The notes under the pieces: generated by a model
The model's input: the letters and a program-made list of their open reading frames with translations, nothing else
Told to the model about the DNA's origin: nothing
Database searches by the model: none
NCBI GenBank assembly: GCA_041288095.1
Contig: JBGGMJ010000058.1
Span: forward strand, 1-49,041
DNA: 49,041 nt
Source of the DNA: Myxococcota bacterium
GTDB lineage: Bacteria > Myxococcota > XYA12-FULL-58-9 > JALHOP01
Direction of reading: 5' to 3'
Made by a program: the position numbers and the translations under genes
In this document: piece after piece, positions 29,081 through 49,041 of the stretch
Numbering within the stretch: the first letter of the stretch is position 1
How the letters are laid out: each line of letters opens with the position of its first letter

Positions 29081-29192
29081 GAGAAAGTTCCTGGTCGATT
29101 CTCGGGGTTACCTGTGGTCGGCGCCGACGACCTCTGCAACCGACGTAACCCCTTGTTTTTCCATGATCCGAGAAAGTTCCTGGGCGATTCTC
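29081..29192 (+). repeat. Direct repeat pair GAGAAAGTTCCTGG(T/G)CGATTCTC (29081-29103, 29170-29192) enclosing inverted repeat GGGGTTAC/GTAACCCC (29104-29111, 29145-29152)
   Basis: 22/23 identical copies read directly; same core as the repeats flanking the transposase. Confidence 0.85.
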
Positions 29193-39876: not shown

Positions 39877-40762
39877 CGACGCGCACTGCGTGCTCATCCG
39901 GCTCGATTTCTTCGCCGCGATAGCGGGCGAACACCTGTGTGAACTCCGCGCCGAAGAACATGATCTGCGCCGAGTAGTAAACCCACACGATGGTTACGAC
40001 GAGCGCGCCGGCGGCGCCATACGTCGAGCCGAAGCTCGCGTTCCCCAGGTAGAGGCCGATGAGGAGCTTACCGATGCTGAAGAGTAGCGATGTGATACCG
40101 GCGCCGACCCAGGTGTGCCGCCAGCGCACGTTGGCATCGGGCAGCACTTTGTAAATCATCGCGAAGAGCAGCGTCGTTACGATGAACGAAACACCGAAAT
40201 TGAGTGGCTGCCATAGCAGACTGACGCCGGGAATCACGCCCTTCAACGCGCCGGTGAGACCCGAGATGGCGGCGGACAACACCAACGACACCAGCAACAG
40301 GAAGCCCAAGACGAGAATCATCGCGAACGACAGAACGCGCTTGCGCAGGTAGTTCCAGATGGTCGTCTTGGTCTTTTGGGCCTCCTTCGGCTGCACGCCC
40401 CAGATGGTGTTGAGGGCGTACTGCAGCTCGGCGAATGCGCCGGTCGCGCCGAAGAGCAACACCGCGAGGTTGATGGCGGACGCGATGATGCCGGTCTTCT
40501 CGTGCTTGCCGGCGTTGTCGATGGCCGCTTCGACCACCTTGGCGGCGTCGGCGCCGATGAGGCCGGCGATCTGTCCGAAGAGCTCGCCGCGCGCGGCCTC
40601 TTCTCCGAAAACGAAGCCCGCGACGGCGAGCACGACGAGGAGCAGCGGCGCCAGCGAGACGAGCGTGTAAAAAGCCACCGACGCGGCGAGGCTCGACGCA
40701 TTGTCGTCGGACCACTCCTTGGCGGTGTCGCGCACCAGCGTAATCGCAGTCTTCAGTACCAC
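39791..40762 (-). CDS. YihY/virulence factor BrkB family membrane protein
   Basis: AASVAFYTLVSLAP, LNTIW, YKVLPD, STYGAAG, WVYYSAQI..FGAE. Confidence 0.92.
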   Translation of the reverse strand: MVLKTAITLVRDTAKEWSDDNASSLAASVAFYTLVSLAPLLLVVLAVAGFVFGEEAARGELFGQIAGLIGADAAKVVEAAIDNAGKHEKTGIIASAINLAVLLFGATGAFAELQYALNTIWGVQPKEAQKTKTTIWNYLRKRVLSFAMILVLGFLLLVSLVLSAAISGLTGALKGVIPGVSLLWQPLNFGVSFIVTTLLFAMIYKVLPDANVRWRHTWVGAGITSLLFSIGKLLIGLYLGNASFGSTYGAAGALVVTIVWVYYSAQIMFFGAEFTQVFARYRGEEIEPDEHAVRVDVVKREIPEGEPEKTGDRHSRNGVPARS

Positions 40763-40793
40763 CTTGCGAAGCTGGTCAACGTCTTTCGCTTCG

Positions 40794-41687
40794 TCAAGGC
40801 GCCGCGCCGCCCGCGAGCGCGGGGATCATCGCTCGCAGGTGCGCCGCGAACAGCTCGGCCGGGCGCGAGAGGGTCCGGCCTTTGCGGGTCACCAGGAAGA
40901 GCGGAGAGCCGATGCGCTTCGAGACCTTGGCGACGACGGCCTCGCCTCGTGTCACCTCGCGTTGCACGATGAACTTCGGCACGACGGTGTAGCCCAAACC
41001 GGCGAGCGCGAGACGCTTCTGTGTCTCCTGGTTGTTGGTCTCGATGACGACGTTCGGTTGGACACCGAGCGATGCGAGCATGCGCATCGCCGGGTAGCGC
41101 TTCACATAGTCCGTGGTGCGCGAGCCGACGTATGGGACGCGCTGCAGATCGCGACGGGTGAGCTCCGCGCGGCCGCCGGCCACGACCACGAACTCGACGA
41201 AGCACAACGCTTGCGTCGCGAGCCGCGCATCGCGGGGCTGGGTGTAGAAGACACCGAGCTCGTCGTCGCCTTCGAGAATCTCCTTGGCGATGCTGTCCGA
41301 GGTACCGCTGAACACGGCGACGGTTACCTTCGGATGCCGCGCGAGAAACGGCTCGAGCAAGCTCGGCATCAGGTAGTTGCAAACGTTGTCCGATGCTCCG
41401 AGCTTGAGGTGGCCGACACATTCCGTACGCTCCGCTATTACGGAGCGTCGCAATTTCTCGATCTCACCGAAGACGACTTCGCAGCTGACGAGAAAGCGAC
41501 GTCCGGCGGGGGTGAGCTGGACGCCTCCCCTGCCGGTGCGATCGAGAAGCGTGACGCCTTCGTCCTCCTCGAGGAGCCTCACGGTCTTGCTGACCGAGGG
41601 CTGACTCACGCGCAACGCGCGCGCGGCCTTGGTGATGCTGCCGGCTCGGGCGACGGCGTGGAAATAGCGCAAGCGGTCGAGCTGCAT
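40794..41687 (-). CDS. LysR family transcriptional regulator
   Basis: LRYFHAVARAGSITKAARALRVSQPSVS HTH; LTPAG; substrate-binding domain. Confidence 0.94.
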   Translation of the reverse strand: MQLDRLRYFHAVARAGSITKAARALRVSQPSVSKTVRLLEEDEGVTLLDRTGRGGVQLTPAGRRFLVSCEVVFGEIEKLRRSVIAERTECVGHLKLGASDNVCNYLMPSLLEPFLARHPKVTVAVFSGTSDSIAKEILEGDDELGVFYTQPRDARLATQALCFVEFVVVAGGRAELTRRDLQRVPYVGSRTTDYVKRYPAMRMLASLGVQPNVVIETNNQETQKRLALAGLGYTVVPKFIVQREVTRGEAVVAKVSKRIGSPLFLVTRKGRTLSRPAELFAAHLRAMIPALAGGAAP

Positions 41688-41695
41688 GAGCCCAT

Positions 41696-41742
41696 TCTAT
41701 ATGAGCATAAATAACATGGGAATTATGTATTTTACGTATGCT
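41696..41742. promoter_or_regulatory. AT-rich divergent control region, probable LysR binding site
   Basis: ATG-N11-CAT dyad (41701-41717) in an AT-rich patch between divergent genes; TATGCT -10-like hexamer at 41737. Confidence 0.45.
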
Positions 41743-41788
41743 TCGCGAAAGCGCACGGTGCCGGTCCCTTCCTTCAGGATCTCCCACC

Positions 41789-42766
41789 ATGATTCAGTCC
41801 GCTACCGGCCGCCTTACGGCGCGCTTCTCCCACAATCTCGTCCTCGACACCGCCATCGTCGGCCTCCGCGAAGGGTCGGTCACTGGTCGACCTTATCGTC
41901 TTCCCGAGCCGGCCTCGGCTGTGCCCCGGACTTCGCGTGTCACGCCCGTGCGCGGCGACAGCGGCGAGGTCGTATCCCTCCCCGGGCGCGCCTGGATTGC
42001 CGCCTCGAAGTTCCTCGCGCGGTCGCAGTCAGCCACCTTGAACGCCATCAAGGACGAGATTCGCCTCGCGGCCGAAGTGGCCAAGCGCACAGGCACGCCG
42101 CCGCCCGTGGTCATCTACGACTTGGACGGGACGCTCTTCGACAACCGCTTTCGAACGCTAAAGATCCTGCAAGAGTGGCTCGCCGACACGTCGGACCTGC
42201 CGGCCAACATCCGCGAGGCCTTCGAGGGCCTGCGCGCGCCCAGCATCGCCTATGATCTCGCGGGAACCTTCGAGCGCCTGGGCTTGGCGGCGGACGCCGC
42301 GGGGGTCCGCGATGCGCTCGCCAGCGCCAGCCGCTACTGGAAGGAGCGCTTCTTCACCAACGGGTACATGCAGTACGACCGACCGCACCTCGGGGCATTG
42401 GCTTACGCGAAAGCCTTGCACGAAGCCGGTGCGACTACCGTCTACCTAACCGGCCGCGACGAGCCCAACATGGGCGCCGGCACCCGCGACGCCCTGCGCG
42501 CCGCCGGCTTTCCCATGGACGAGCGCAGCCACGTCATCCTCAAGGACCGCTTCGAGACCCCCGACGCCGAGTTCAAGGCCAAGGCTCTCCCGGTCATCGC
42601 CCGCCGCGGCCCCGTTCTCGCGACCTTCGACAACGAGCCCGCGAACGTCGTGGTCTTCCACGACGGTTTCGCCCGCGCCACGCACGTTTTCGTCGACACC
42701 GACTACAGCACCAAGCCGACTCCCGTCACCGACGGGCTGTCCTGGGTCGCCGACTTTCGCGCCTAG
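41789..42766 (+). CDS. HAD-superfamily phosphatase with ~90-aa N-terminal extension
   Basis: YDLDGTLFD, YLTGR, FK, FDNEPAN. Confidence 0.8.
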   Translation: MIQSATGRLTARFSHNLVLDTAIVGLREGSVTGRPYRLPEPASAVPRTSRVTPVRGDSGEVVSLPGRAWIAASKFLARSQSATLNAIKDEIRLAAEVAKRTGTPPPVVIYDLDGTLFDNRFRTLKILQEWLADTSDLPANIREAFEGLRAPSIAYDLAGTFERLGLAADAAGVRDALASASRYWKERFFTNGYMQYDRPHLGALAYAKALHEAGATTVYLTGRDEPNMGAGTRDALRAAGFPMDERSHVILKDRFETPDAEFKAKALPVIARRGPVLATFDNEPANVVVFHDGFARATHVFVDTDYSTKPTPVTDGLSWVADFRA

Positions 42767-42775
42767 TCTGCTTCG

Positions 42776-44221
42776 TCAGTCGGGCGCCCCCACCTCGAAA
42801 GCACCGAGGTCGGGCGCGCCGCCGACGAAAGGCGCGCCGTTGGCGGCGCCGGCGTCGATCGCGTCGCTGCCGGCACGCAGGCGTAAACCGATGGGGACCC
42901 GCGTCCCATCGCCGGCGCGCGGAGCGGTCCCATCACGGCGCAGGCGCGTCGCATCCGTGTCGACGAAGTCGTCCACGGTGACCGCGACGCCACCAAGACT
43001 CCAACTGTTGTCGTCGTCGACGACCGCGCCGGTGAGTTGCACCCCAGCCGCCTGCGTAAACCCTGCGTCAGTGTCGAAGACGAGTGAGTTGACGATGTGA
43101 TGGGGCATGCCGTCGTCGAGACTAACCTGGATGAAATTGCCGTCCTTGGCATTGGCGAAGAGCGTCGCGTGCTCGATGTGGAGCCCCGGGCCGCGGTTGC
43201 CGTTGTCATCGATGCCGAAGCCTTTGTTTCCCCATGCGACGACGCGCACCAGCGCCAGGTCCGCGGCGTCCTGGCCGAGCTTGAACCCGAAGCCGTCACC
43301 CTGGAACGCGCCGGTGAGCTGCGCGGCCCACTCCGTCCGGTTGAAGCCGTTGTCGAACGACCAACACTCCTCGATGAGCACGCGGTGCGGCGCATGCCAG
43401 AAGTCATAGCCGTCGTCGGAGTTGCTCCAGGCCCGCGTGCGTCGGAAGACGTTGCCCGGGCCCAGGGTATCGAACTTCGCCGCGAACCCGTCGGCGTCCT
43501 CGCCGTTGCCTTGCGGGTCGAAGTTGTCGTGTGAGTCGCAATCGACGACCAGGTTGTCCGCTGGAGCGTACCCATCCTTGCCGGTGATCTCGAGCCCGGA
43601 AGCCTTGTTGCCGGCGAGGTCGAGCCGCGCCAGAACGTTGTGCGAGCCGTACACCCGCACGCCGTAGTAGGCGGCGTTGCGGATAGCGAGGCCCTCGATC
43701 CGCCACCAGTCTCCGGTAACCAAGAGACCAACGGCGTTACCGGTCGCCGCCAGCGAATCGTCGACCCGTGGTTGCGGTGGAGCGGCATGTCGTGTGTTGT
43801 CCGCGAAATCGAGCGTCACCGATTCGCCCGGCTGCGCCATGAGCGTGAGCCTCGCGCTGTCACCGTCGCCGCTCGCTTGCAGGCGCACCGCGGAGGTCGG
43901 GCGATACACACCGCCGCGCATCACCACGGTACCGGCCGGAGGGACGCGAGCGAGGGCCGCGGCGAGGGAGGCGAGTGGCGCATCCATGGCGCCACTCGCC
44001 CCGTCATCGCCGTCAGGCGCCACATACAAAGTTTTCGCCACCGCGCCGGTACCACCCGGCGACGGTGGGTCTTCGTCGGTAGCGCCCGTCGTATCGGCGT
44101 CACCAGTGAGCGACCCCGCTTCGTCGTCGCCGGGGGCCTCGCTGTACGGATCCCCGCCGACGCCGCCGCAGCCAAACAACGACGCCAGCATGAGACCGCA
44201 TAGGTAGTCACCGCGAGACAT
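42776..44221 (-). CDS. Polysaccharide lyase family 9-like (pectate lyase) beta-helix lipoprotein
   Basis: Lipobox LFGC; LYVAPDGDD; DADGFAAK, GNVF..RAWSNSDDGYD, GDGFGFKLG. Confidence 0.82.
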   Translation of the reverse strand: MSRGDYLCGLMLASLFGCGGVGGDPYSEAPGDDEAGSLTGDADTTGATDEDPPSPGGTGAVAKTLYVAPDGDDGASGAMDAPLASLAAALARVPPAGTVVMRGGVYRPTSAVRLQASGDGDSARLTLMAQPGESVTLDFADNTRHAAPPQPRVDDSLAATGNAVGLLVTGDWWRIEGLAIRNAAYYGVRVYGSHNVLARLDLAGNKASGLEITGKDGYAPADNLVVDCDSHDNFDPQGNGEDADGFAAKFDTLGPGNVFRRTRAWSNSDDGYDFWHAPHRVLIEECWSFDNGFNRTEWAAQLTGAFQGDGFGFKLGQDAADLALVRVVAWGNKGFGIDDNGNRGPGLHIEHATLFANAKDGNFIQVSLDDGMPHHIVNSLVFDTDAGFTQAAGVQLTGAVVDDDNSWSLGGVAVTVDDFVDTDATRLRRDGTAPRAGDGTRVPIGLRLRAGSDAIDAGAANGAPFVGGAPDLGAFEVGAPD

Positions 44222-44236
44222 GTGCCGCTCCTCGTT

Positions 44237-45760
44237 TCATCTGTAGGCGAGCTGAAAATCTTCGGGGTCGATGGCGACGAGACCGTCGGCGGGAAACTTC
44301 GCGTCGCCGTCAGCGGTGCGGCGATAGCTGACCGTCGTGCACGAGCGGGTGACCGTCGGCAGGCCATCCGGAGCATCGACCGCGGTTTGCAGCACGTACA
44401 AGCACACCACGTTGTCGCCAGCCGCGCTGTCCTGCGTCGCCAGCGTCTCGACCAAGCGCACGTTGTTGACCCGGAAGTCGAAGCAGCTCGTGCCCTGGTC
44501 CGGGGCGTCGGTCGGCGTGAGCGCGCTGTAGACATACGCCCAGTCTTGGGTCGCATCCGGAAAGATCGGATTCGTCCCAACGCGGATCTCCTGGGCGTCA
44601 ACCACGCCGTCGCGGTCGGTGTCTTGTGTCAGCGTGCGAACATCAAGCGCATTGGTGCCGAGCCGCAGCTCGATGTCATCCGGGAAACCGTCAGCGTCGG
44701 AATCCGCCGCCGTCGCGTCGAAGGCGAGCGCCGCCTCGGCGCAGTCTGGAATGGCGTCGCCATCGCGGTCGATGAGATCCGATGCGTCGCATTGCGAATG
44801 GCACAAGTCGCGATTCGGCAGGAGCGCTTGGTCGACGCGATCGTTGCAGCCGTCGACGTCCGCATCGGCACTCGTCGGGTTGGGATCGTCCGCGTCGCGT
44901 ATGCCATCGCGGTCACTGTCGGGATGCAGCTCGTCGTCCCAGACGACCCTGCTGGTGTTGACGATGTAGAACTCGCGGGATTCGAAGCGTCGTAGGATCT
45001 CCACGAAGCCGATGTCGAAGTCGAGCGTGTCGGCGACGAGATCGCGGAAGGTGCCGTCGCCGATTCCCGCCATCGGCTGCAGGAATTGGGTCGGGTCGCC
45101 GTATTGGCACTCGGTTTGATACTGCATGTAGTTCAAGCGCGTCGTGCTGAGGCGCAAGGAGAACGGGTGAAAGACGTCGGCGAGATTCATCAAGGCCGCG
45201 GTGCCCGCGAGAACGGTCGTGAGCGGCACGCAGGGGTTGGGGTCGCCGTCCGAGAGGAACTGTACGTCATAGCGTGTACGGGCGAGCTCGGAGGCGGACA
45301 GCAAGCGCATGTCTTCGTCGAGAAAGTCACGCGCCATCTCGAGCACCTTCACGTAGTCGGTGCCGCCGGTCTCGTCGCGCAGCGGCGGAATGGCGCTGGC
45401 GATGAGAGTCGCGGTGTCGCGCGTGAACGTCGGTGTCAGGCGCTCGGGCTCGGCCGCGAAGCGAATGATGCCGAAATGCACGCTGGCGTTGTCCGCATAG
45501 CGCTCTATGACCCGTTGGACGGCGTCGGCACGGCGGTCCTGTGGGTCGCTCGTTCGGTTGCTCCCCGAGTGATCGATGACGAACAGAATCTTGTACGGAA
45601 ACGTGATGGCGGTCGGCGCCACGGTGCACGCCTCGCCCGCCAGCTCGACGACGTTGTCGATCACCTCGCCGGGAGGCATCTCACAGGGCGCGACGCACAA
45701 CTCGGCATCGGTACAACCCGCGAGCAACGCGCAGCACGAAAGGATCAGCAGCCTTGCCAT
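44237..45760 (-). CDS. VWA + thrombospondin type-3 repeat lipoprotein (MtsD-like adhesin)
   Basis: Lipobox LAGC; FPYKILFVIDHSGS MIDAS, GGTDY, LSDGDP; multiple DxDxDG repeats. Confidence 0.78.
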   Translation of the reverse strand: MARLLILSCCALLAGCTDAELCVAPCEMPPGEVIDNVVELAGEACTVAPTAITFPYKILFVIDHSGSNRTSDPQDRRADAVQRVIERYADNASVHFGIIRFAAEPERLTPTFTRDTATLIASAIPPLRDETGGTDYVKVLEMARDFLDEDMRLLSASELARTRYDVQFLSDGDPNPCVPLTTVLAGTAALMNLADVFHPFSLRLSTTRLNYMQYQTECQYGDPTQFLQPMAGIGDGTFRDLVADTLDFDIGFVEILRRFESREFYIVNTSRVVWDDELHPDSDRDGIRDADDPNPTSADADVDGCNDRVDQALLPNRDLCHSQCDASDLIDRDGDAIPDCAEAALAFDATAADSDADGFPDDIELRLGTNALDVRTLTQDTDRDGVVDAQEIRVGTNPIFPDATQDWAYVYSALTPTDAPDQGTSCFDFRVNNVRLVETLATQDSAAGDNVVCLYVLQTAVDAPDGLPTVTRSCTTVSYRRTADGDAKFPADGLVAIDPEDFQLAYR

Positions 45761-45845
45761 GCAACTCGAGACTGCACGCCGCGTACCACAGCCGCCCCCA
45801 CGTCCCATCAACCACCAAGACACCACCAGGACGCCGCAAGCCCGC

Positions 45846-45871
45846 CGGGCGTCCAGGAGTATGGACGCCCG
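45846..45871. repeat. Perfect 10-bp hairpin CGGGCGTCCA-ggagta-TGGACGCCCG
   Basis: Read directly, just outside the left transposase-flanking repeat. Confidence 0.7.
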
Positions 45872-45888
45872 CTCCGCGCGCCTGGACC

Positions 45889-47213
45889 CACCATCGACCA
45901 GGAACCTTCTTGCGAGCACTCGCGCAAATGGACCCTCGTTGTTGTCTGTCGGGTGCTCGAGGCGCGGTGCGTGAGGCACAGGGGGGCCGTTGTTGGGTTT
46001 TCGGCCGGCAATGCGCAACCTGGAGCAGGTTCTAGGCAGATCTCGAGCGTTCTTCTACGCTCCGGCCGGTAACCCGTCGGGTGGTGTCGTCCATCTGCCT
46101 GGCGCGAACGAACCGATGGGAAAAACCGGGGCACGACACCTAGCGTCCTCTATAGCGGCACGGCGGAACCGCAGTTGGAAGCTCCAATAGGCTTCCAGAT
46201 AGCACTGCGTAGCTGGGGCATTCGGCGACGCCCAACATACGATTCGCCGGCGGCGCTGGATCCAAGGAACCTCCGGCAATGCGGTTCGATGGTCCAGCGG
46301 CACTCGGCGAATCCGCCGCGCGCCCATCGGCGAGCGTCCTGCCCTCGTGGCGTTGCCCTCAGCAACGATCTCCTCGACGAGTCGCCGAATTTCGCTACGC
46401 CGCGCTTCCGTGCCCAAGTGCTGCCACGCGGGGATCGGGGCCAGCTCGACCGAATAGTCGGTCAGGTGATCACGCCTGGAAATCACCTTGGGATGCCGCC
46501 GGCGCGACTGACTATCGACGGCGCGGGAATATGTCGTGGCGTTCAACCAGGTGCCCCGGAGTGGCTCACCGTAGAGGAGAGAACGTGCACAATGCACGCC
46601 GGGCCACTCTTCTGGGCGACCGACGAGTCCCTCTTTGACACCTTGGCTGAGGATGTACTTGAGGCACGCCACCTGACTCTCAGGTGTCGGAAGAGCAGTG
46701 GCCCGATACTCGTGCCACATCGTTCCGCTCCAGCCGACGGAAGAGTTCCGCGCCCACCGGCGCGAGATCTCTCGCTTGATGAATCCGATGAAGGCGGGAA
46801 CCTCCTCAGGGGGGCCTTGGAGCATGAAGTGAGCATGGTTGGAGAGAAACGCCATAGCGTACAGTCGCACCTTGGCGTATCGCCGCAGGGCTCGCCCGAC
46901 GACACCCAGGATGATGGCGTTGAGCTCGGTACACGGTCGCAGCAGGTGTCGGCCTTGGAAGACACGCGAAATCACATGAATGGGAACATCACTCGTGATG
47001 AACCGCGCGTGATGCGTCCCCGCATGCACCGGCACATGGCCGTCGAGCAAAGGAGCACCGGGCGCAAACACCATCCTCGCCCTCGGTGCACCCAGCATGC
47101 CGGCCCGAGGCTTCATCTGGGCGGCGAACTGCGGCCCTTCCCGCTGTCACGGTCGCTGCTGTCGCAACTTGCGACGCGAAAAGCGGACGGAGAATGTTCC
47201 TGGTCGATTGGTG
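45889..47213. mobile_element. HUH/Y1 transposase unit bounded by inverted copies of an 18-bp repeat
   Basis: ATCGACCAGGAACCTTCT (45893-45910) versus AGAATGTTCCTGGTCGAT (47191-47208), 17/18 reverse-complement match; flanking CACCA/TGGTG extends it; no TSD seen. Confidence 0.7.
46055..47116 (-). CDS. REP-associated tyrosine transposase-like (Y1_Tnp/RAYT) HUH endonuclease
   Basis: IHVISR, HUH motif LSNHAHF, catalytic Tyr in KYILSQGVKEGLV..PEEWPG; true start probably downstream of 47116. Confidence 0.8.
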   Translation of the reverse strand: MKPRAGMLGAPRARMVFAPGAPLLDGHVPVHAGTHHARFITSDVPIHVISRVFQGRHLLRPCTELNAIILGVVGRALRRYAKVRLYAMAFLSNHAHFMLQGPPEEVPAFIGFIKREISRRWARNSSVGWSGTMWHEYRATALPTPESQVACLKYILSQGVKEGLVGRPEEWPGVHCARSLLYGEPLRGTWLNATTYSRAVDSQSRRRHPKVISRRDHLTDYSVELAPIPAWQHLGTEARRSEIRRLVEEIVAEGNATRAGRSPMGARRIRRVPLDHRTALPEVPWIQRRRRIVCWASPNAPATQCYLEAYWSFQLRFRRAAIEDARCRAPVFPIGSFAPGRWTTPPDGLPAGA

Positions 47214-49041
47214 AGGGTTAGGGCCAGCACGAGCGCAATCACAATACCGCTGGCGCTCCTCGAGGAGGTGCAGCCGCCGTCGCCGGTGACCGGCGGCTTG
47301 CCGGCTTGCTCGGGGGTGCCGGTGCCGGTGAGCGCAAGGGTTAGGGTTGGATTGGTGGGGTCGTCGGAGGTGATGGTTAGGGTGTCGGCGTACTGCGTGA
47401 ATGCGGGCGGGATGAACACGATGCCGATCGTGCAGCTCGCGTTGCCGGTGAGGACGAAGCTGGTCGCGCCGCAGGGCGCGTCGCCGTAGTGGACGTCGAT
47501 CGTGAACGGAGCGCCGGAGGCGAGCGAGACGCTCGTGACCGTCAGCAGGCCGGCTCCCTCGTTGGTAACCATCACCTCGCCCGAGGCGGTGCCGTTCGCT
47601 TCGATATCGCCGAAGGCCCGGCTCGCGGGGTCGATCGCGATCCGACCCTGGGCCTCCAGCGCGCCGAGGTCCACCGCGGAGCCCACGATGCGCCGCGCGC
47701 CCGCGAAGTCGGTCGCCGGTAGACTCGGAGCCGCGTCGTCGCCGGCGTCGAGCGCCGGACTGCCGACACGCAGGCTGAAGTCACCACTCGCCGCGTTCGC
47801 GAACAGTGGATCGCCCTGCACCGCGTTGGTCAGTGTGACCAGCGCCGCGCTCGCAAGGTCGCAGTTGAGCGTCACGCTGTCGTTGGTGAAACAACCATCG
47901 GAAGCGAGGTTGTGCGAGACGGTGAACGTCGGTGTCGTGCCCGCGTTGGCGCGAACGACGAAGTCGTTGCCGGTTCCGGGAGGCGCTACGTTATCGAAGA
48001 AGATGTTGTTCACGAGATCGGTGTGCGCCGCCGAGCTGCCGCCCGGTACGCCGTGATAGACGAACACGCCGCCGACCGCCTCGACGGAGGAATTGCCCAC
48101 GAACGTGTTGTTGATGATGTCGACATCGACTGGTGAATTCGCGTCACTGAGCAGCGCCAAGGCGCCCGCCGGGTACAAGAAATCGGCCGTCGTGCTCTGA
48201 TTGTCCGCGATGACGTTGTTGGCGATGAGCACTGGGCCCGAAGCAAAGAAGATATTGAGGTTGACGCCGCCGACCTGCAGACCGGCGTTTGCGGTCACGA
48301 GATTGTCGAGCACGGTGATGGCGGAGCCGCCGCTCACATTCAACAAGTTGACCCCACCGGCCCACCCCGCGCCGCCAACGTTCCCCTGCACGTGGTTACC
48401 CTGGAACACGATGGCGCCGTTGAAGTTCGACCAAATATCGATCCCATTCGCCTTGGCGTTCGCGGCCCCCGTGTTCCCAGAGACGACGCAGTCCTTGACG
48501 ATGATGGTGCCGCTGTTGCCCGTCAGGTGCGCCCCGCCCGCGCGCTTGCCGTCGAGGTTGTCCTTGAGCTCGACGCGCTCGATGGTGATCGTGCCGGCAT
48601 CGTGGCCGGCAAAGAGCCCGGCGCTGAAGCTGTCCGCGTCCGAAGGCACCGTGCCGTTCTGGATGGTCAAATCCCGAACCACGATGTCAGCATCGCCGCT
48701 CACGCTGAGCGCGAGGACGGAGCGCGTCGACGCTCCATCGAGGATGGTCACCCCCATGCCGGCTCCGACAATCGACAAAGAGTTGCCGTCGATGCTCCCG
48801 CCGTTGAACGGGTAGCCCGGTGGGTCGTTGCTCATGATCGAATAGGTACCGGCACCGAGATTGATGATGTCGCTCTCGTCGTTGTGCGACGCGACCGCGA
48901 GTGCCTCGGTCAAGCTACACAGCGTCTTCGGCTCGGCGACGTCATTGGCGCACGCGGCCTCACCGCCGCCACCCGAGGTCGGTGTCACTTGGATGGTCGC
49001 GGCGAAAGTCGTTTTGGCGGAGACGACGAGAACGACAGCGA
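47147..49041 (-). CDS. Large surface protein: right-handed beta-helix + choice-of-anchor Q/Ig-like domain + MYXO-CTERM-like anchor; 5'-truncated by window edge
   Basis: Frame stays open to the window end (..AVVLVVSAKTTFA/ATIQV); NNTFVGN repeats; DPLF..GDFSL..GSPALDAG..VDLGALE; GGC + TM tail. Confidence 0.8.
   Translation of the reverse strand, partial: AVVLVVSAKTTFAATIQVTPTSGGGGEAACANDVAEPKTLCSLTEALAVASHNDESDIINLGAGTYSIMSNDPPGYPFNGGSIDGNSLSIVGAGMGVTILDGASTRSVLALSVSGDADIVVRDLTIQNGTVPSDADSFSAGLFAGHDAGTITIERVELKDNLDGKRAGGAHLTGNSGTIIVKDCVVSGNTGAANAKANGIDIWSNFNGAIVFQGNHVQGNVGGAGWAGGVNLLNVSGGSAITVLDNLVTANAGLQVGGVNLNIFFASGPVLIANNVIADNQSTTADFLYPAGALALLSDANSPVDVDIINNTFVGNSSVEAVGGVFVYHGVPGGSSAAHTDLVNNIFFDNVAPPGTGNDFVVRANAGTTPTFTVSHNLASDGCFTNDSVTLNCDLASAALVTLTNAVQGDPLFANAASGDFSLRVGSPALDAGDDAAPSLPATDFAGARRIVGSAVDLGALEAQGRIAIDPASRAFGDIEANGTASGEVMVTNEGAGLLTVTSVSLASGAPFTIDVHYGDAPCGATSFVLTGNASCTIGIVFIPPAFTQYADTLTITSDDPTNPTLTLALTGTGTPEQAGKPPVTGDGGCTSSRSASGIVIALVLALTLTNRPGTFSVRFSRRKLRQQRP

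Follow-up and report, generated by a model that had tools for sequence, protein, structure and literature searches.

A TIRYT-type Y1/HUH nuclease of an unclassified YxxxQG clade in Myxococcota, with a predicted cognate site and a sigma-54-type promoter resembling those of DNA-uptake genes

The window analyzed here is a whole stretch of 49,041 nucleotides, contig C58 of a Myxococcota genome (G000; 5.85 Mb, 66% GC). It contains an intact open reading frame on the reverse strand (46055-47116, opening at 47116, 353 aa) that encodes a Y1/HUH nuclease. Because a predicted promoter falls within the first 14 codons of this frame, the likely start is the ATG at 47074, which gives a gene at 46055-47074 with a product of 339 aa. 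Two outward-facing copies of an 18-mer enclose the gene, as the first-pass annotation of this DNA had proposed: the 5' site at 47191-47208 (forward strand) and the 3' site at 45893-45910 (reverse strand), neither of which has a duplication at it. Upstream of the gene lie a palindromic host operator (47159-47177, core 47161-47175) and, 57 nt downstream of it, a match to a sigma-54-type -24/-12 promoter (47087-47103, reverse strand), with the ATG following 12 nt later. Scanning of 45800-47300 for sigma-70 promoters and terminators gave none, and no tnpB was seen at the locus. Small hairpins had been described just inside each end, and both palindromes are present as written, but neither is an element end: the 5' one is the host operator, whereas the 3' one (45910-45927, with a 5-bp stem) occurs once in G000 at up to two mismatches, is not conserved inside the 3' sites of five homologs examined and is not counted in the system. 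Directly outside the 5' site is an ORF for a choice-of-anchor Q/D surface protein (47147-49041, reverse strand), whose last 20 codons run through both site and operator, and directly outside the 3' site are a pectate-lyase-like gene and a VWA gene (42776-45760, reverse strand).

The nuclease carries the HUH motif as H94-A-H96 and its catalytic tyrosine as Y154 in YILSQGVKEG (numbering of the 353-aa frame); all 46 aligned homologs have H94, H96 and Y154, and nearly all have Q158. The 58 residues from H96 to Y154 align to ISDra2 TnpA without a long insertion, and the protein continues into a C-terminal extension of about 160 aa. The window protein has no Pfam match at E<=0.01, including none to HTH or DnaA-C domains in the tail, and scores 41.9 bits against the NCBIfam profile REP_Tyr_transpos, below its cut-off of 80; the Y1_Tnp profile is matched by 22 of the 46 homologs. 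In the fold search, the best match of the full-length structure model (pLDDT 87) was 4er8, the E. coli RAYT (Z 14.9, rmsd 2.7 over 155 residues), followed by IS608 (Z 8.2), and Foldseek was concordant. The tail is confidently modelled in the full-length structure and was scarcely probed by this search; modelled alone from a single sequence it reaches a pLDDT of 33, and its Atlas matches are all under 0.9. The initial description of a RAYT-like HUH protein holds for the fold and the catalytic residues, with the profile scores of the window protein as a caveat. With its HUH motif, single catalytic tyrosine and RAYT/IS200 fold, the protein has the features of the TnpA-Y1 superfamily.

In a core-domain tree of 76 rows, in which our own loci and E. 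coli RayT served as references rather than published subclass sets and from which 14 rows without the searched HUH pattern were dropped, 43 family rows group in one clade (support 90/99, stem 0.79) next to the YxxxNP proteins and apart from IS200, placed within a class-2 fork that the tree leaves unresolved. Judged against these references, the YxxxQG proteins are an unclassified clade. Tyrosine motifs among the homologous proteins comprise 126 YxxxQG, 68 YxxxHG, 4 YxxxNG and 23 others, with no YxxxNP in the family, though the motif pattern could score NP. The family amounts to 529 clusters at E<=1e-30 and is present in 14 of 22 genomes of the order; the records of the closest loci are mostly from Myxococcota, with Acidobacteriota also represented. 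Values of dN/dS in four homolog pairs are about 0.10-0.19, with synonymous sites near saturation.

All four 18-mers reported in the window at first pass were recovered on the same strands, namely the two flanking sites, a dispersed intergenic copy at 29082-29099 (forward) and a second dispersed copy at 29171-29188 (forward), in direct orientation to the first and at the 3' end of the neighbouring gene. Three are exact with position 5 left free, and the copy at 29171 has one mismatch. The chance expectation in the window at up to three mismatches is 0.11, and none of 100 shuffles reached four copies. Dispersal of the repeat throughout G000 is likewise confirmed, with 19 exact copies, 25 at up to one mismatch and 29 at up to two, compared with 0 matches for the reversed pattern; according to a crude ORF call covering 87% of the genome, 18 of the 29 are intergenic. 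The three same-genus genomes (G001-G003) hold 16, 23 and 22 copies, and a single match was found in one of 37 other relatives, the rest having none. At the place in G002 orthologous to the copy at 29082, two site copies are also present. Elsewhere in G000 (C171:4182-4298), the site occurs four times as 33-nt tandem copies, like a minimal array without spacers.

The core lacks a GTAG/GTGG foot and can pair only as a 4-5 bp AGAA/TTCT pseudo-stem, in agreement with the earlier view that it has neither the REP tetranucleotide nor a strong stem. Among 109 copies in the four genomes, no pair of positions beyond the AGAA/TTCT core covaries above shuffles, and a hairpin-REP reading was dropped on that ground; guide pairing of the IS608 type (position 5 with 17, and 1 with 21) was also dropped, as no pattern emerged. 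Written inward, the site is ATCGACCAGG, which does not contain the GGGGWSAS motif of most, though not all, described TIRs, whereas the ends of a paralog on contig C85 come near that motif. A central CTG is common to the window site and the sites of the YxxxNP loci examined, and because of it we infer that the window site is a diverged member of the same repeat superfamily.

Comparisons across loci and genomes show that an outward-facing site lies on one or both sides of the gene and co-varies with the protein, with 15-30 solo copies per genome. In the genus, 9 of 10 full-length homologs have the 5' outward site and 6 of 10 have both, while 4 of 10 have no nearby 3' site and one (L004) has degenerate sites only; these counts rest on four genomes, whose members are kin and not independent. 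Outside the genus, an outward site scoring at least 12 bits was found in 48 of 82 flanks of 46 non-redundant loci, compared with 1 inward. At 14 bits or more, there were 43 outward matches versus 1 when the matrix was retrained on the inward strand, the retrained matrix giving 11 at 12 bits or more. Three genomes whose Y1 gene carries the GTTCCYGGTCR form of the site are enriched for it (94 versus 25 in the control, 84 versus 23 and 95 versus 10), whereas two genomes with other Y1 site variants are not (26 versus 19, and 15 versus 20) and instead hold their own variants (10 versus 0, and 14 versus 0). In an Acidobacteriota-rich branch, a related site ending in GGCACCT occurs in both orientations. 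As the first-pass annotation had anticipated for homologs in other genomes, site variants track the protein across the genomes compared, and it is very probable that the enzyme acts on this site. Since homologs carry the same site and its variants co-vary with them, the repeat is neither limited to four copies nor without association to homologous transposases, the outcome that had been named as fatal to an enzyme-repeat system.

Promoters dependent on sigma-54 typically have a -24/-12 GG-N10-GC element downstream of a palindromic upstream site, and the window locus has this architecture, as judged by that generally known consensus. Of 14 Y1 genes inspected in the genus, YxxxNP paralogs included, 13 have the operator upstream (one locus, L015, was left out). 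A matrix built from these genes gives 19 matches in G000, where three column-shuffled matrices gave 0, 13 and 2, and the matches include sites before recQ, comM/yifB, radC, recA/dnaG, comEC and dprA. When the matrix was trained without G000, on the Y1 upstream sites of G001-G003, these six genes and all three G000 Y1 genes were among the genome-wide top 20, about 11 of which stand before genes without a known competence link. In an ortholog check of 56 loci, covering most of 69 pattern matches, the operator is kept at recQ in three relatives, at comM, comEC and radC in two, and at dprA and recA in one. Farther away, in the distant genome G045, dprA, comM and two Y1 genes have it upstream; none of the Y1, dprA and comM genes checked in G043, G044 and G046 does. 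Outside the genus, it was found before 17 of 39 Y1 genes of the main branch, compared with 0 of 38 in the control, and in 1 of 81 regions upstream of Y1 genes of the other, Acidobacteriota-rich branch. A promoter score of at least 10 of 13 was obtained for 15 of 22 Y1 loci, of which three have no score because another palindrome was picked, against a background of 61 in 3000 windows (about 2%). The same threshold is reached for recQ, comM, recA, comEC and dprA, five of the six genes, and not for radC. The promoter mostly lies 56-59 nt from the operator, and the ATG typically follows 11-25 nt later.

These comparisons show that the Y1 gene has the same operator and sigma-54-type promoter, as predicted from their motifs, as DNA-uptake and recombination genes. 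The operator is thus a probable upstream activating sequence for both, and we hold with good confidence that the Y1 gene is induced together with competence genes. A precedent for such a link exists in E. coli, where rayT is raised on competence induction, as cited in the available part of PMC5581495; here, the link would concern two distant lineages and a different regulator. An SOS-box reading of the operator was set aside, as by eye, against the Myxococcus consensus, the lexA upstream region at one locus (L208) shows a different motif.

Several further operator sites may be mentioned in their own right. In all four genus genomes, the operator lies between a gene for an FHA-domain sigma-54 activator and a polyprenyl synthetase gene (G000:C142:18102, L217; L228, L265 and L289), with no promoter match on either side in G000; the FHA-domain protein is a candidate self-regulated activator of the regulon. 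In G001 (L264, C23:5421), another operator copy stands before a gene for a tyrosine integrase that combines a Phage_int_SAM_4 with a Phage_integrase domain, an architecture that we take to be integron-integrase-like. Five G000 genes without family matches (C83:11881, C79:61405, C210:23621, C95:30318 and C149:42385) carry both the operator, which relatives retain at these loci, and a strong match to the promoter, and are candidate competence genes.

Footprints are found beside the sites themselves, where 31 of the 109 genus sites have a partial or whole copy just outside, amounting to 39 events. Counted from position 18, 27 of these events have their outer end at +6 to +8 and 3 farther out, the other 9 being imperfect older arrays that end at +3/+4. 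The inner end is variable, lying anywhere between -4 and -27 and most often at -8/-9. For each of the 18 perfect tandems, an outer end at +6 to +8 is compatible with the sequence. Of 75 clusters, 11-12 have a second copy of the terminal 9-mer of the site downstream and none has one upstream, compared with a background of 44 in 20,000 (0.22%). Distant loci behave similarly: duplications were found at 19 of 49 sites in a first set, 13 of them ending at +6 to +9 (control 1), and at 19 of 88 sites in a second, 16 of them at +5 to +9 (control 0). By eye, the same pattern appears at two classical YxxxNP (TIRYT) loci from plasmid records, L342 and L343. At the window locus, the corresponding landmark would be at 47214-47216 for the 5' site and at 45887-45885 for the 3' site. 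No junction at the sites was found in contigs of four DNA runs.

HUH chemistry yields a 3'-OH and a 5'-phosphotyrosine. Nicking, extension and rejoining would give a product exactly like these fixed-end duplications, in line with the nick-primed amplification model proposed for BIMEs (PMC3333891, legend to Fig. 7B), and the duplications appear to point to a cut site and to fit such a reaction. The best explanation of the locus, with a probability of about 0.68, is a TIRYT-type Y1/HUH nuclease of the Myxococcota/Acidobacteriota YxxxQG clade that would nick and rejoin DNA at a cognate non-palindromic site when competence is induced. Once the competence programme is on, the enzyme would bind the site and nick just outside it, on the strand complementary to the written 18-mer and 6-8 nt outside position 18, an exact geometry to which we give even odds. 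From the free 3'-OH, copying would run back into the site, usually for 14-17 nt, until stopped by the bound protein; the extended 3' end would then attack the phosphotyrosine. The product would be a tandem duplication whose outer end is fixed and whose inner end varies. Joining of this kind would also seed solo copies and occasionally move or delete the gene, with no target duplication.

A possible but rather unlikely alternative is that the gene is a slow selfish transposon, in which the two sites would be its ends, the solo copies footprints or miniature derivatives, and the competence promoter an acquisition that times movement, with no benefit to the host. Besides the inverted ends and the 2-3 full-length copies per genome, presence and absence at orthologous loci favour it: gene copies of G002 and G003 correspond to clean empty sites in G000 (C80, C153 and C27), with 6, 17 and 19 nt unmatched. 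In these comparisons, host sequence including stop codons resumes at site positions 16-19, and a solo copy of G002 is a 17-nt insertion relative to G000 that ends at position 15; the insertion boundary at L019, L023 and L194 is placed at positions 15-18. The empty-site boundary and the duplication end thus form two landmarks about 10 nt apart, for which the one nick of the main reading does not account; the junctions are blurred because the species compared are only 80-90% identical. Against a selfish transposon, the full-length copies share only 57-77% amino-acid identity with the window protein and none is nearly identical to the window gene. Y1 loci are common to the species pairs G000/G002, G000/G001 and G002/G003, which together with the divergent paralogs indicates slow turnover, in which gain and loss cannot be polarized. 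Furthermore, no target-site duplication was found at the three empty sites, and matches in plasmid records are weak (28-30% identity) and partial (5 of 72,556), with none of the family in phage records. A 63% identical paralog in G000 (C168:40067-43990; L010, L176) has the 5' site only, and the four surrounding sites all point away from the gene across neighbouring genes, an arrangement kept in G001.

Under the nick-and-rejoin reading, the enzyme may also be host-kept for a purpose. It is doubtful, but conceivable, that it serves to join DNA during competence: a sigma-54 activator would turn it on along with ComEC, DprA, ComM and RecA, and it would nick at fixed landmarks beside the kin-specific site and ligate incoming single-stranded DNA to them, a foreign fragment thereby being joined at one end without homology. 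Slightly more doubtful is a domesticated role in gene capture, whereby the enzyme would join incoming single-stranded DNA to chromosomal sites during transformation and new genes would pile up at the outer edge. Co-regulation with comEC, dprA and comM would suit this, as would the larger content of this locus in G000 than in G002, and in G002 than in G001. G001 lacks the gene and 8 kb of neighbours, G002 has the gene and 2 kb, and G000 has a further 3.1 kb and at least 1.9 kb relative to G002 directly outside the two sites, with one ORF fused to a site. This surface-protein ORF is absent from the orthologous G002 locus and gave no match with the window query in G001-G003. The orthologous G002 locus likewise lacks the pectate-lyase-like and VWA genes, and the site there adjoins the gene that ends at 42766 in the window. 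G000 has two copies of the VWA gene, a divergent one in the window (69% nucleotide identity to relatives) and the resident one on C211 (78-85%). In G003, another Y1 copy has an additional 2 kb next to its 3' side. However, the window pattern is also readable as deletions in relatives, and synteny breaks coincide with dispersed sites no more often than with operator sites (colinear at 15 of 33 dispersed versus 22 of 48 intergenic operator sites, Fisher p = 1.0), with absence of the inner side only and of the outer side only equal (4 and 4). A gene-gain hot-spot at dispersed sites is accordingly unsupported by this test. Export of a site with its outer flank was considered for one 12-nt match at equal offset (L009/L180), which was taken as chance, as the supposed donor locus in G001 has no site. 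The part of the window at 40756-42766 holds a LysR-like regulator (by eye) and a HAD-family gene, about 76% identical to G002 and absent at the G001 locus.

Defence by competence-induced cutting or trapping of incoming foreign DNA, with repeats and duplications as by-products, is improbable: the shared regulon with DNA uptake and the proposal made for RAYTs in the conclusion of PMC5581495 speak for it, but the footprints imply rejoining rather than destruction, and the site is a genus-specific self sequence and so marks kin rather than foreign DNA. Polymerase slippage at a site that the protein only binds, without any nick by this enzyme, is equally improbable: stalling of forks at a set distance could be caused by a protein that is bound tightly, but many perfect tandems have junction homology of 0-1 nt, the operator, likely protein-bound too, shows no such arrays by eye in the loci inspected, and the distance is kept across unrelated site sequences.

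The first-pass annotation had inferred a distinct transposase-repeat system. The enzyme-repeat link, the non-REP repeat class and the unclassified clade agree with this; the architecture itself, as far as the available text of PMC3733652 (Di Nocera 2013) describes it, is that of the TIRtrons or TIRYTs and not a distinct kind of system. In that paper, the names stand for RAYT-like genes lying between inverted repeats of non-REP type, which are also found as dispersed families, and most TIRtrons have been equated with TnpA-Y1 subclass 2.1 (Quentin et al. 2018, PMC6006769, from the text available). Together with RAYT group 1 (Bertels et al. 2017), these are the closest known systems. By the descriptions available, the features in common comprise a RAYT-like HUH/Y1 gene between inverted non-REP repeats at a fairly fixed distance, a moderately abundant dispersed repeat family with dimers and clusters, low-copy divergent paralogs and a long protein with a C-terminal extension. 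As far as those descriptions go, the window family differs in having YxxxQG (YILSQG) instead of Y---NP in a separate, long-stemmed clade, a repeat without the majority motif, a tail in which the Pfam search gave no match to the HTH or DnaA-C domains of subclass 2.1 and RAYT group 1, and a length of 330-350 aa versus a median of 238. Beyond this, the locus has, on our motif analysis, a host operator, which is the supposed 5' hairpin, and a sigma-54-type promoter, and sites across the clade have fixed-end duplications; no description of a competence-type promoter or of such duplications was found in the available text of PMC3733652 and PMC6006769. A member of the YxxxQG clade may be among the 26 TIRYTs of the former paper. 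In the literature searched, with few subscription papers among it, no description was found of the YxxxQG clade, the repeat, the operator, the footprint or a sigma-54-type competence regulon.

Other relatives are more remote. REPtrons and RAYT groups 2 and 3, with E. coli TnpA-REP (4er8) as the closest solved fold, share dispersed repeats, tandem amplification modelled as nick, extend and rejoin in the accessible part of PMC3333891, and the competence link cited in PMC5581495. Unlike theirs, the window site has no GT[AG]G foot, no stem-loop and, in the main branch, no inverted doublets; its copies number 15-30 rather than hundreds, and its duplications have a fixed outer end. The class 1 TnpA proteins of IS200/IS605 (IS608, ISDra2) share the HUH fold, the Y---Q spacing and the lack of target duplication, whereas the window family groups with class 2, is twice as long and has inverted ends, without conserved sub-terminal hairpins or near-identical copies. 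Subclass 2.3, which is similar in length (325 aa) and free of REPs, is set apart by its description in the available text of PMC6006769, since the window family has neither its 55-aa core insertion (beta3-alphaC) nor YVDLNP. Class 3, which has a Q-type tyrosine motif and occurs in Acidobacteria, is set apart by the description in the same text, as the window family has Y---Q rather than Y----Q, no CnGA-footed hairpins and 340 rather than 178 aa.

In the literature covered, part of it as partial text, no substrate or cut site was found for the TIR-flanked class of the RAYT-family "domesticated transposases". For this class, the present analysis puts forward a defined candidate substrate, two predicted cut landmarks, which are seen again in classical TIRYT loci, and a predicted condition of expression, namely the DNA-uptake programme, for which two distant lineages give support. 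A putative sigma-54-type competence regulon in uncultured Myxococcota emerges as well. If the enzyme does nick and join at a fixed offset from a non-palindromic site of 14-18 nt, it would represent a new kind of sequence-directed HUH tool. Were the joining-enzyme reading true, TIRYT/group 1 RAYTs, reported in about 15% of species in the accessible text of a 2018 survey (PMC6006769), would gain a function as accessories of natural transformation.

A few related loci deserve separate description. Three YxxxNP-type Y1 paralogs of the same genus (L012 at G000:C85:73-768, L013 and L014) have inverted ends of their own, those of L012 being near the TIRYT motif; the three share the operator and promoter, and L014 has a fixed-end duplication. 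A shortened, divergent Y1 homolog in G003 (L011, C44:6022-6456), with its second histidine replaced, has the operator and no flanking sites. In the Pseudoalteromonas locus L342 (1600-1790), a YxxxNP gene with an internal stop precedes an array of repeat copies, some whole and some truncated on the inner side, all with a common end point.
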